64,000 bases of DNA, from assembly GCF_013315695.1 (NCBI RefSeq), contig NZ_CP054353.1; one strand, 5' to 3'. Origin of the DNA: Escherichia coli. Lineage in GTDB: Bacteria > Pseudomonadota > Gammaproteobacteria > Enterobacterales > Enterobacteriaceae. Position numbers: made by a program. Shown here in pieces: positions 59,542 through 64,000 of this stretch (position 1 is the first letter of the stretch; the number at the start of each line of letters is the position of its first letter).

Positions 59542-62500
59542 TTAATTAAGCTATCGAGCTGTTCACGCAGCTGGGATACATGCAAACCAATGATCACCTG
59601 AATGGCATCGCCACTACGGAAGACGCCGTGCGCTCCCAGCTTTTTAAAGACTTCGTCATCCAGCGTTTGTGACATGTCATGCAGTGCAATACGTAAACGC
59701 GTCGCGCAATTGTTGATGCTGGAGATATTGCCGACCCCGCCCAGGGCTTGCAGGATACCGGCAGCCTGATCCAGCTCTTTTTTTGGCTCTGCCGCGGTGG
59801 TTTGGCCTCGCGAGGCTTTATATTCGGCTTTTGAGTAGAGTTTCACTTCCGCATCTTCACGTCCCGGCGTGCACATGTTGAATTGCAGAATCAGGGTGCG
59901 GAAAACCACGAAGTACAGCAGGGTAAAGCACAACCCAATGGCGATTTGGGTCAGCATCATATCCGCGTGGTTGCTGAACATCGGGATCCAGTTTTGCGGT
60001 AAAACCTGGTCAATCAGACCTCCGCCCATGTTGCCCACCACACCAAAGAGGTACATCACGGTCGACATTGAGGCCGCCAGCACGGCGTGTACCGCAAACA
60101 GCAACGGTGAAATGAACAGGAAGGTAAATTCCAGCGGTTCGGTAATTCCCACCAGCATGGCGGTTAAGGTTGCAGGGATCAGCAAGCCCGCCACTTTTAC
60201 CCGATTTTCCGGTGCAGCAGTGAAGTACATTGCTAAAGAAATGCCCACGGCACCAAAGATTTTTGAGTTACCGTGCAGGGCAAAACCGCCTTCCGGGAAC
60301 AACGATTTCAGCGGCTCGGCGCTCAAACTGAACTCTTGCAGATGCTGCGCCCAGTACATCTGAATGCCGCCTTCAACAGCTGCCGGACCAAAGATAAACG
60401 GTCCGTAGATGAAGTGGTGTAAACCGGTTGGGATCAGAATACGTTCGAGGAAGGTGTAAACCCAGACCCCAAGCGCACCCGCCGAACGCAGGAACGCTTG
60501 CAGAGATTCAATCCCCATTTGTACTTTTGGCCAGCCGAGCAACGTCAGCCAGGCGCAGGGGATCATCACCAGGAAGGCGATAATCACCACATAAGACGTC
60601 CCCTGGAAAATGCCGAGAAACACCGGCAGTTTTTTATCGAACAGACGGTTATGCAGCGCCGTCACAATGCCGGAAATGATAATTGCGCCGATAATGCTGG
60701 TATCGAGGGTTTTAATCCCGGCCATCATTGTCAGACCGCTACCTGCCACCGCGTCCTGAGTGAAATCGACGCCGAAGTAGCTTCCCCAGGTCATTCCCAT
60801 CGCGTTGATGAAATAGTTCCAGGTCAGGAAACTCACCATCACCGCCAGACAAGCTCGCCCCTGCGCTTGCTTAGCAAGGCCAATGGGTAAACCGACAGCA
60901 AAAATCAGCGGCATATTACGGAATACCGTCCAACCGCCCTCTTCAATAATATGTACGATTTGCGCGAATAAACTGTTCGGATCGGTCAGTGATTCCCCGA
61001 CAAACATCGGGTTTTGCAGCAAGATGGCAAGACCCACCACAATCCCGGCGAAGGGAAACAGCAGCACTGGCGTGAACATCGCGCCGCCAAAGCGTTGAAT
61101 TTGACTGAGCATTTCCACATCCTCTTTTCTCAATTCTGTAAGTAGGAAGCCTGATTGGTTATGCGGCAGGCCTGGAGCGAGGATAGGAAGATGCGATCGG
61201 CAGAACATGACGACCCAATGGGATTCGTGATCGCTTTCATGCTTTTCGTTGGGCGGTAGAGATCTACGTTTTCGCAAAAAAGTAGACATCTGTGAGCACT
61301 GGTACACAGCAACGAACACATCTTTAAAAAAAAGATGTTTTTTCAATCGATTAAGCAGAACTTGTGGGCGCATTACCCGGGCTTGCAGGCAAAAAAGAGA
61401 TCTAGAGATGATCTACAAAAGCATTGCGGAGCGGTTAAGAATTCGACTTAACTCCGCGGATTTCACGCTAAACAGCCTTCTTCCCGGTGAAAAAAAGCTG
61501 GCGGAAGAGTTTGCGGTATCGCGGATGACCATCCGTAAAGACATTGACCTGCTGGTAGCGTGGGGGCTGGTGGTCCGCCGCCACGGTAGCGGCACTTACC
61601 TGGTGCGCAAAGATGTACTGCATCAAACCGCCAGCCTGACCGGGCTGGTGGAGGTGTTAAAACGCCAGGGAAAAACGGTCACCAGCCAGGTGTAATGCCA
61701 GTCAGTTAAGCAACTGACTGGCTCTTTTTCGGGGCTGTGGGGTATTTCCAGGGCCTCTCCTTTACCACTCTCGGGAAGGCCCTTTCCCTTCTTGTCGGTA
61801 ATTTCACAAGTTGTCCCATACTTGCAAGATCGCGCATCAGCTCCGGTATACGTCCCGGTGAAGCGCCCTGCAATGTCATCAGCATTCTCATCACCATTCC
61901 GCATGATTCTGAGAAACTCAGTTGATTCGGCCAGTAACCTTTCAGATGTTCCGCCATTTTAATCATCTGATATCTCACCAGATTATAAGCCAGTAAGACA
62001 CCCCACAGCTCTTGCTCCACAAGCTCCGGTTTTTTACTTCTCAGCGTCAGCCTGCTCAGTTGCATCGTCTGTTTTATCTCCCTGTATCCCAGTTCGATTT
62101 CCCAGCGATGACTGTACAGATCCGCCATTTCTCCTCCGGGGAAGCGCATGGCGTCCGTCATCGACGTCAGCAGATGGCAGACTTTTCCTTTGCGCGTCAC
62201 GGTCAGCAGGCGGGCTGTCACTTCATTTCCCAGTCCCGGCCACTTTTTTCGTGCCTGCGGGCTGGTTTTCAGCTTCACCAGATGATCGCCTTTACCCAGT
62301 TTTCTGATCTCTTCATATTGCGCTCCCTTTCTGAGAGGTATCATCCAGTGGCGGTGTTCTCCCGCCAGGCTCCAGGCATTTAACAGTCCCAGTGAGTAAT
62401 AACCTTTATCCATTAACGTCAGAGTGTTATCGCCGGTTTGTTCTATAAGTTGCTCAGCAAGCTCATTTTCGCTGTTCTTCATCGTGCCGAAGGCTGCAGC

Positions 62501-64000
62501 CGTCAGCAGATGGCTGGTCAGTTCCATCTGGCAGACCATTTTGACCTGCGGGTAGAGCGCCGGGTTCCCGGCATGTGTCTGGCGGGGGAAGGCTGCATCG
62601 TTCTCTGGTGTATCCGGTGTGCGCCAGAACACACCATCGATGGCCAGCAGGGTCAGGCCGCACCAGTGCGGATGCGGCGTGGCGTTATGCCAGAGCTGCG
62701 CTGTTTTCGTGAACACGCGGCGGACAGCCTCACTTCCCAGGCGCTGGCGGGCCTGAATAACGGCACTGGGGGCAACGAAGGGGCGATTGCCCGGCAGCAT
62801 GATGTCCAGGCGATTCACAATCTGGTGAAGAGGTTCTTTACGCTCAAGCGCCATGCCAACAATACACCAGACCATCATTTCGAGGGGAAGACGGCGCTTG
62901 CGTAGCGTTACAGTACCTGATTCGGCAAGGCAACGAGAGATGAGTTCGGGGTCGAGGTAATCCCCCAGAGAAGTCAGTGGGTTACGCAGAGAATCGTAAC
63001 GGGATACCAGATCAAGAGCCTGTCCAATGTGCATAAAAAAATCCGGAAACAAGTGAGCGTTTCCGGATTCTTACACAGCCACTGGATCGGTCAACTGATC
63101 CTTAACTGATCGGCATTACCCCCCTTTGAGACTATTTTAGCCACCAGCAAGAAACGTCTATACTCGCAATTTACGCAGAACTTTTGACGAAAGGACGCCA
63201 CTTCATTATGGCTCACCCTCATTTATTAGCGGAAAGAATTTCCCGCCTGAGCAGTTCGTTGGAAAAGGGGCTTTATGAACGTAGCCACGCCATCCGCTTG
63301 TGTTTATTAGCGGCATTAAGTGGTGAAAGTGTGTTCCTCCTTGGCCCGCCAGGTATTGCCAAAAGTTTGATCGCCCGGCGCTTAAAATTCGCCTTTCAGA
63401 ATGCCCGCGCGTTTGAATATCTGATGACTCGCTTCTCCACGCCGGAAGAGGTTTTTGGTCCCCTTTCTATTCAGGCGCTAAAAGATGAAGGGCGCTATGA
63501 ACGTTTAACCAGCGGTTACCTGCCGGAAGCAGAAATCGTCTTTCTGGATGAGATCTGGAAAGCGGGTCCGGCAATTCTTAATACCCTGCTCACCGCCATT
63601 AACGAGCGCCAGTTCCGCAACGGTGCACACGTAGAAAAAATCCCGATGCGCCTGCTGGTGGCGGCCTCCAACGAGCTGCCGGAAGCAGACAGCAGTCTGG
63701 AAGCGTTATATGACCGCATGCTGATTCGTCTGTGGTTAGATAAAGTGCAGGATAAAGCGAATTTCCGCTCCATGCTGACCAGTAAACAGGATGAAAACGA
63801 CAATCCGGTTCCTGCCTCCTTGCAGGTCACAGATGAAGAATATGAACGCTGGCAGAAAGAGATTGGTGAAATTACGCTGCCCGATCATGTATTTGAGCTG
63901 ATTTTTATGCTGCGCCAGCAACTGGATAAATTACCGGATGCGCCTTATGTCTCGGATCGTCGCTGGAAAAAAGCGATTCGATTATTGCAGGCCAGCGCCT

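Follow-up and report, generated by a model that had tools for sequence, protein, structure and literature searches.

The IS4 junction between yidP and ravA

The 64,000-nucleotide stretch of Escherichia coli DNA analysed here (the window; contig NZ_CP054353.1) ends in a junction at which the 5′ part of yidP is connected, through a copy of IS4, to ravA. The question raised by this locus is how two distant genes came to flank a single insertion sequence. In K-12, yidP (3,863,899-3,864,615, plus strand) and ravA (3,929,597-3,931,093, minus strand) are about 67 kb apart with oriC (3,925,744-3,925,975) between them, in agreement with the original prediction. The features of the junction, in window positions, are as follows.

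61408-61695, plus strand: yidP 5′ fragment (GntR-family regulator), 95 codons followed by TAA
61680-61692, no strand: left flank CACCAGCCAGGTG, one of the two copies of the 13-bp target duplication around yidP::IS4 (TSD-A)
61693-63118, minus strand (that of the transposase gene): complete IS4, 1426 bp, left end toward yidP and right end toward ravA
61706-63052, minus strand: IS4 transposase ORF, 448 aa from a TTG start (442 aa from ATG according to other gene callers)
63119-63130, no strand: right flank CCCCCCTTTGAG, one of the two copies of the 12-bp target duplication around the IS4 between kup and ravA (TSD-B)
63131-64000, plus strand: ravA upstream region and 5′ part of ravA, which runs off the window end

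The yidP reading frame begins with the ATG at 61408 and closes with a TAA at 61693-61695, the three bases with which IS4 begins; the truncation after 95 codons, with a stop provided by the IS terminus, is thus borne out. The 95-aa product is also called in relatives, and the index of the searched collection lists it for 1431 blocks. It carries the GntR domain (PF00392), and its PGAP label in both MSB1_4I and AF3 is "GntR family... missing C-terminus", while the separated 138-aa 3′ fragment in relatives carries UTRA (PF07702). Taking into account the N-terminal GntR helix-turn-helix, the C-terminal UTRA domain and the synteny with K-12, where the gene lies between glvBC and yidE, the truncated gene is identified by sequence as yidP, of the GntR/HutC type.

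The element itself proved to be complete, as had been claimed. It has the same length and ends as the single IS4 of K-12 (insG, MG1655 4,502,090-4,503,515), from which it differs by 4 mismatches in 1426 positions (99.7% identity). Its termini are TAATGCCAGTCAGTTAAG... and ...CTTAACTGATCGGCATTA; the terminal inverted repeats are imperfect (TAATGCCAGTCAGTTAAG against TAATGCCGATCAGTTAAG, 16 of 18 positions matching), and the ends agree with the -AATR consensus of the IS4 subgroup (PMC2266710, Table 1). The transposase ORF is intact. Precomputed Pfam assignments for the identical product are PF13006 (Nterm_IS4) and PF01609 (DDE_Tnp_1), and RefSeq annotates it as WP_000483766.1, "IS4-like element IS4 family transposase". 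By length, identity, ends and transposase domains, the element is assigned to IS4 (IS4 family, IS4 subgroup).

A direct target duplication of 10-13 bp was looked for at both flanks of the window IS4 and is not present. The sequence on the left is CACCAGCCAGGTG and that on the right is CCCCCCTTTGAG, so that the flanks, as predicted, do not form a direct repeat; the right flank had been written with seven C residues and contains six. Whereas the K-12 copy is bordered by a 12-bp target duplication, the window copy has non-matching flanks, which is attributable to its being a recombinant of two insertions rather than to its not belonging to IS4. The two genomic settings also differ in copy number, IS4 being present once in K-12 and about 17 times in the lineage of the window.

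On the other side of the element, the ATG of ravA is located at 63208, 90 bp past the IS4 right end. This flank had been interpreted as the upstream region and 5′ end of ravA, and the interpretation is correct: positions 61692-64000 match the corresponding IS4-ravA region in MSB1_4I (locus L001) with 100% identity. In relatives, ravA is followed by viaA, asnA, asnC, mioC and oriC, the latter about 5.2-5.3 kb beyond the IS4 right end (mapped in loci L001, L008 and L015).

Close relatives hold both parental insertions

The near-identical complete genomes of MSB1_4I and AF3 contain IS4 both within yidP and between kup and ravA. The former copy has a perfect 13-bp duplication (CACCAGCCAGGTG) on both sides, which is also found around the yidP IS4 at 9 other loci and occurs once in intact K-12 yidP. 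The latter has a perfect 12-bp duplication (CCCCCCTTTGAG) on both sides, likewise present around this copy in IAI39 and at loci L007 and L009, and occurring once in the kup-ravA spacer of K-12. The two parental copies lie on opposite strands, 71,613 bp apart, and bracket oriC and dnaA. In MSB1_4I they are 100% identical over 1426 bp, and the window IS4 is identical to both.

Over the approximately 62 kb up to IS4, the window and MSB1_4I are colinear and differ by 7 SNPs; the window then switches to the ravA side. One half of TSD-A stands to the left of the window IS4 and one half of TSD-B to its right, a combination characteristic of IS copies in inverted orientation that have undergone homologous recombination. 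Crossover mapping by means of SNPs between the parental copies of MSB1_4I, AF3 and IAI39 demonstrated no chimeric IS4: the copies of AF3 and IAI39 each have one private SNP, absent from the window, and because the parental copies are identical no crossover point can be located.

The copy in the kup-ravA spacer (copy B) is common to IAI39, CE10 and about 35 complete genomes. The non-inverted yidP::IS4 (copy A) with its perfect 13-bp duplication was found in 13 of 20 informative contigs, these being long assemblies of the sublineage. The window carries, in addition, eilA::IS1 and an 8-bp deletion in yidJ, both missing in the compared relatives; given these private changes, its sequence is that of an isolate distinct from them. 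The N-terminal fragment of eilA::IS1 was found in 18 short contigs, all of them at most 200 kb long.

The reciprocal junction is present in a relative

A contiguous yidP5′-IS4-ravA arrangement was absent from the 5,426 complete RefSeq E. coli genomes searched, and in the same number of complete genomes ravA was not found natively adjoining yidP without IS4. The arrangement is present in assembly GCA_964055605.1, with a structure identical to that of the window (loci L008 and L015). The same 5.18-Mb contig contains the reciprocal junction, kup-IS4-yidP3′-yidE (locus L023), whose flanks, TSD-B to the left and TSD-A to the right, are swapped as expected; the second IS4 proposed in the original prediction, lying between kup and the 3′ part of yidP with yidE, was therefore encountered in this relative. 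Its two IS4 copies are 71,612 bp apart, compared with 71,613 bp in the parental form. For the junction loci of this assembly, four, three and two further similar places are known as counts, corresponding to about four more assemblies. Over the flanking 12.6 kb, the window and GCA_964055605.1 show private differences only, on each side, so that a single and a recurrent origin of the inversion are not separable from this region.

Exchanges with other IS4 copies were also observed. OZ039802.1 has a junction between copy A and a third copy, C (locus L019), together with its reciprocal (locus L027). The partner pairs seen in the lineage are A with B, A with C, C with B, and A with a copy in the leuX island, and the arrangement at locus L010 needs at least two inversions. 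For loci L011 and L012, an IS4 flipped in place by recombination was considered and rejected, as homologous recombination keeps each flank joined to its IS end; since a flank is never parted from the adjacent end, these loci represent independent insertions at one site.

Origin of the junction

Very probably, a 71.6-kb inversion ends at this junction, having arisen when two identical IS4 copies in opposite orientation underwent homologous recombination. The lineage would first have gained copy B in the kup-ravA spacer, with a 12-bp duplication, and the sublineage would then have gained copy A in codon 96 of yidP, with a 13-bp duplication. A crossover within the 1426-bp repeats would finally have inverted all DNA between both copies, comprising ravA, viaA, asnA, mioC, oriC, mnmG, the atp operon, dnaA, gyrB, dgo, ibpAB, yidE and the 3′ part of yidP. 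Its products would be yidP5′-IS4-ravA, at the window end, and kup-IS4-yidP3′, which is observed in the relative and is to be expected elsewhere in the genome of the window. Such an inversion would presumably depend on the recombination system of the host. What is observed directly is the pair of parental insertions with their orientation, the mixed flanks of the window IS4 and, in the relative, the reciprocal junction; these observations support the proposed IS4-mediated yidP-ravA inversion across oriC. A deletion between direct repeats was rejected, as the two copies face opposite ways, oriC and dnaA are part of the DNA between them, and this DNA is still present in the relative that shares the junction. 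Inverted IS copies that recombine are known to invert the interval between them, an event to which short reads are blind (Lee et al., 2016, mutation-accumulation lines, PMC5009759), and in the long-term evolution experiment with E. coli most rearrangements arose from recombination between IS copies (Raeside et al., 2014, PMC4173774).

An unlikely alternative to this inversion is that the isolate has the parental arrangement and that the assembler linked the identical inverted copies the wrong way round. In MSB1_4I the query matches at 18 places, most of them copies of IS4, and the two copies at yidP and ravA are indistinguishable over their whole length; a short-read assembly graph fits both traversals of such a pair, and the junction occurs in none of the 5,426 complete RefSeq genomes. 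As mis-bridged identical inverted repeats also yield a perfectly reciprocal "inversion", the reciprocal junction of GCA_964055605.1 does not exclude an artefact on its own. However, the window contig crosses an IS1 as well and runs through at least 64 kb of repeat-rich sequence, which implies long reads that would easily span 1.4 kb. The same junction moreover recurs in GCA_964055605.1, a different isolate, and, by count, in about four more assemblies, and other assemblies show comparable reciprocal exchanges that involve a third copy of IS4.

It is very improbable that transposition made the inversion directly, either by intramolecular movement of the ravA-side IS4 into yidP or by an IS inserting at a DNA break without duplicating its target. 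An intramolecular replicative event would give the same product, each IS having one old and one new target copy, and break insertion has a precedent in IS movements tied to rearrangements without target duplications (preprint, bioRxiv 10.1101/2024.06.02.596822). Break insertion is opposed by the window flanks, which are exact halves of two duplications and hence do not reflect a duplication-less repair. Against direct transposition in general stands the non-inverted, perfectly duplicated yidP::IS4 in most (13/20) informative contigs of the sublineage, which implies that the insertion came before the inversion. IS4-family transposases, with IS10 and IS50 as models, work by cut-and-paste, a mode that is not known to make replicative inversions. 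Just as little probability is given to a more complex structure, in which a duplication, a translocation or a mixed population flipping orientation would place the junction beside the parental ones. The several IS4 partner combinations of the lineage indicate that successive or nested events occur, and the two or more inversions needed at locus L010 point the same way, but the junctions and the conserved 71.6-kb interval of GCA_964055605.1 fit a simple balanced inversion and there is no sign of extra copies within the window.

Effects and relation to known rearrangements

The inversion by IS4 recombination is probably a neutral, ordinary rearrangement. Little effect is expected, because oriC lies inside the segment, so that genes keep their direction with respect to the replication forks; because oriC moves by about 61 kb, a shift in replichore balance equal to about 2% of the genome; and because no new gene is disrupted, yidP being already split and IS4 already upstream of ravA. 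Replichore imbalances below about 10% are tolerated (PMC4173774). We consider it unlikely that the three oriC-proximal IS4 copies (yidP, kup/ravA and yigE/corA) form a recurrent, reversible flip-flop system with orientations possibly under selection. Were this so, oriC would be repeatedly moved by 60-140 kb and origin-proximal blocks reshuffled, and selection might rebalance the replichores after the gain of an island or alter gene dosage.

The lineage of the window is a widely sampled clinical one. With its about 17 IS4 copies it holds several alternative chromosome arrangements around the origin, hidden from short-read surveys, and this is of relevance for the choice of a reference, for synteny-based analyses and for quality control of long-read assemblies. 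Mismatched flanks reliably mark an IS that has recombined with another copy, and in this case public assemblies document the two parental states as well as the reciprocal product.

The inversion is a further case of an already known type of event, and its novelty is low; a literature search for this inversion or lineage (IS4/oriC inversion, yidP/ravA, MSB1_4I) retrieved no description. Origin-spanning inversions, of which the rrnD-rrnE inversion of W3110 is an example, are the best-tolerated class in bacterial chromosomes, and the present one resembles them in that oriC is inside the segment and the strand bias of genes toward replication is kept. It differs from the W3110 case in that the repeats are IS elements and not rRNA operons, and from the class in being strongly asymmetric, with 5.3 kb on one side of oriC and 66 kb on the other, which displaces oriC by about 61 kb. 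Eisen et al. (2000), as cited in PMC4173774, described inversions of this class. The IS-mediated inversions of E. coli experiments (PMC4173774, PMC5009759) are alike in that inverted copies of the same IS flip an interval, an IS is left at each end, target duplications are swapped between copies and short reads do not detect the change. In contrast to those inversions, the one proposed here is small (72 kb), contains oriC itself, and occurred in natural clinical isolates through IS4, an element that in K-12 is single-copy and gave 0 recombinations (PMC5009759, Table 1).

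IS4 Joins yidP to the ravA Side of the Origin

The window ends in an IS4-bounded junction with the following components:

61408–61695, yidP-like ORF (ATG at 61408, 95 codons, stop TAA at 61693–61695)
61693–63118, IS4, 1426 bp, ends TAATGCCAGTCAGTTAAG... and ...CTTAACTGATCGGCATTA
61706–63052, minus strand, intact transposase ORF
63208 to the window end, ravA, starting 90 bases beyond the IS4 right end

The inverted-repeat termini match at 16 of the 18 outermost positions, and the element differs from the annotated IS4 of K-12 MG1655 at 4 of 1426 positions. Annotation places the ORF product among the IS4 family transposases, and Pfam assigns it Nterm_IS4 and DDE_Tnp_1. 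As originally described, a complete IS4 cuts yidP at 95 codons, its own first triplet supplying the TAA stop, and ravA lies on the other flank. The flanks are CACCAGCCAGGTG on the left and CCCCCCTTTGAG on the right, the latter with six C and not the seven that had been written. The K-12 map assumed in the original prediction is also correct: yidP (3,863,899–3,864,615, +) and ravA (3,929,597–3,931,093, −) are on opposite strands with about 67 kb between them, an interval that includes oriC (3,925,744–3,925,975).

Both Parental Insertions Are Found in Complete Genomes

In a megablast search with window positions 61100–64000, none of 5,426 complete E. coli genomes had the whole stretch contiguous. 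About 35 of these genomes, IAI39, CE10 and MSB1_4I among them, share the window's IS4-ravA part exactly but have kup at the opposite end of IS4. In a second search, the yidP-IS4 junction matched at 100% in two complete genomes, MSB1_4I and AF3, where IS4 is followed by the rest of yidP (its 3′ part), with yidE next. As both matches occur in these two near-identical genomes, they hold both IS4 copies, one in yidP (copy A) and one in the kup/ravA spacer (copy B). Comparison of the junctions showed a 13-bp duplication, CACCAGCCAGGTG, on each side of copy A and a 12-bp duplication, CCCCCCTTTGAG, on each side of copy B; at the empty sites of K-12 each target sequence is present once. These lengths are within the 10–13 bp of the IS4 subgroup (PMC2266710, Table 1), and the IS4 of K-12 itself has a 12-bp duplication. 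In MSB1_4I, copies A and B are sequence-identical, on opposite strands and 71,613 bp apart, and the interval between them holds oriC, dnaA and the atp operon.

For about 62 kb, up to and through IS4, the window and MSB1_4I are colinear and differ by 7 SNPs, one IS1 insertion and one 8-bp deletion; after IS4 the window matches the ravA side of MSB1_4I at 100% identity. The window's IS4 is bordered by duplication A at its left end and by duplication B at its right end (A|B), the combination that a crossover between inverted IS copies would produce. Homologous recombination between copies A and B is the best-supported explanation of the junction. Such a crossover would invert the 71.6-kb interval, presumably with participation of the host recombination system.

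The Reciprocal Junction in a Relative

Public assemblies were screened for loci encoding the exact RavA, the 95-aa YidP fragment and the 138-aa YidP 3′ fragment. One contig of GCA_964055605.1 (CAXKQU010000001.1, 5.18 Mb) carries both yidJ-yidK-yidL-glv-yidP5′-IS4-ravA-viaA-asnA-asnC-mioC-mnmG-atp (L008/L015, A|B) and rbs-kup-IS4-yidP3′-yidE-ibpBA-...-dgo (L023, B|A), the two IS4 copies being 71,612 bp apart. L023 is the reciprocal kup-IS4-yidP3′-yidE junction named in the original prediction, and the inversion across oriC proposed there is supported by the parental copies, the swapped duplication halves and this junction. Further places sharing neighbouring proteins, as judged by neighbours and not by sequence, numbered 4, 3 and 2 for the RavA, 95-aa and 138-aa loci.

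A mis-join in the window's own assembly would exploit the same feature as recombination, namely identical inverted IS4 copies, and wrong bridging of such a pair likewise yields reciprocal junctions. However, the contig runs for at least 64 kb and through both an IS1 and an IS4, implying long reads, and the same structure is seen again in assemblies of other isolates, so that we consider a mis-join improbable. Also unlikely is an inversion made directly, either through intramolecular transposition or through an IS that entered at a DNA break and left no duplication. The IS4 in yidP is most often bordered by an intact 13-bp duplication, and the two window flanks correspond exactly to one half each of duplications A and B. 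Deletion between the copies is excluded by their inverted orientation and the essential content of the interval.

Expected Consequences of the Probable Inversion, and Precedents

Origin-spanning inversions are a classically tolerated class. Here oriC lies inside the inverted segment, 5.2 kb from its copy B end, so that gene direction within the segment is unchanged with respect to the replication forks. The inversion disrupts no new gene, because the parental state already had a split yidP and an IS4 upstream of ravA. It displaces oriC by about 61 kb and shifts replichore balance by about 2% of the 5.28-Mb genome, far below the imbalance of up to roughly 10% reported without effect (PMC4173774). 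The inversion is probably neutral.

This kind of event is already known, and E. coli offers well-documented cases of inversions that arose through recombination of IS copies (PMC4173774, PMC5009759). Of the 110 rearrangements seen in the long-term evolution experiment, most trace to such recombination (PMC4173774), and inversions of this type are invisible to short reads (PMC5009759). The IS4 of K-12 is single-copy, with no recombination events recorded (PMC5009759). The present case differs from those documented in its element, IS4, in its natural clinical lineage and in its strong asymmetry about oriC. A literature search found no published description of this specific inversion; its main value is as a clear illustration of the process and as evidence that chromosome structure around oriC is polymorphic in an IS4-rich lineage.

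Other IS4 Arrangements in the Lineage

Arrangements among the 24 longest contigs carrying the 95-aa YidP fragment
Parental arrangement: 13 of 24
A|B recombinant: 4 of 24
yidP5′ linked via IS4 to yigE′/uvrD: 3 of 24
Contig stops at IS4: 4 of 24

The yigE′/uvrD class uses a third IS4, copy C, located between ysgD/corA and yigE with duplication CAGCAGAAGGTG. OZ039802.1 contains A|C (L019) and the reciprocal C|A (L027) in one record, an inversion of roughly 146 kb between the yidP and yigE/corA copies. CP165028.1 (L010) has a C|B junction, corA-IS4-ravA, which requires two successive origin-spanning inversions, and in L030 yidP3′ is joined to IS4 beside a leuX-island integrase and lptFG. Given the A|B, A|C/C|A, C|B and leuX-island junctions, the lineage carries several IS4-mediated arrangements around oriC. 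L029 is also listed among the loci with other IS4 partner exchanges.

The duplications of the yidP copy (CACCAGCCAGGTG, window 61680–61692) and the yigE/corA copy (CAGCAGAAGGTG) are alike, CA-S-CAG...AGGTG, a resemblance that hints at a possible sequence preference in IS4 targeting. In L011 (8486–9911 region) and L012 (GCA_019397165.1, OZ038544.1), IS4 occupies the identical kup-ravA site with the identical 12-bp duplication in reverse orientation. Because an IS cannot be turned around between its flanks by recombination, the reversed copy stems from a separate insertion, which points to a strong IS4 target hot spot. The site lies inside an imperfect palindrome, CTCAAAG...CTTTGAG. The L012 IS4 is split by an IS21-type element.

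Other Features of the Window

25019–25786, IS1 in eilA, 768 bp, 8–9 bp target duplication CAAAAGTT
28314–29781, internal tandem repeats of iatC, about 291 bp, 82–85% identity, seen as off-diagonal BLAST matches
about 55304, minus strand, 8-bp deletion in yidJ (GCCGCCAG)

The window isolate is distinct from GCA_964055605.1 because of the eilA IS1 and the yidJ deletion, which is private to the window against all 11 relatives compared. With this deletion, which could reflect a genuine frameshift or a fault in the assembly, the yidJ sulfatase ORF has 463 aa, counted from a TTG start, instead of the intact 497 aa. The IS1 is absent from MSB1_4I, and in the public collection the 462-aa EilA fragment that it leaves is confined to 18 short contigs. 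The gene eilA encodes a HilA-family regulator and lies next to an ETT2 type III secretion remnant and iatC, an inverse autotransporter gene of 2351 aa.
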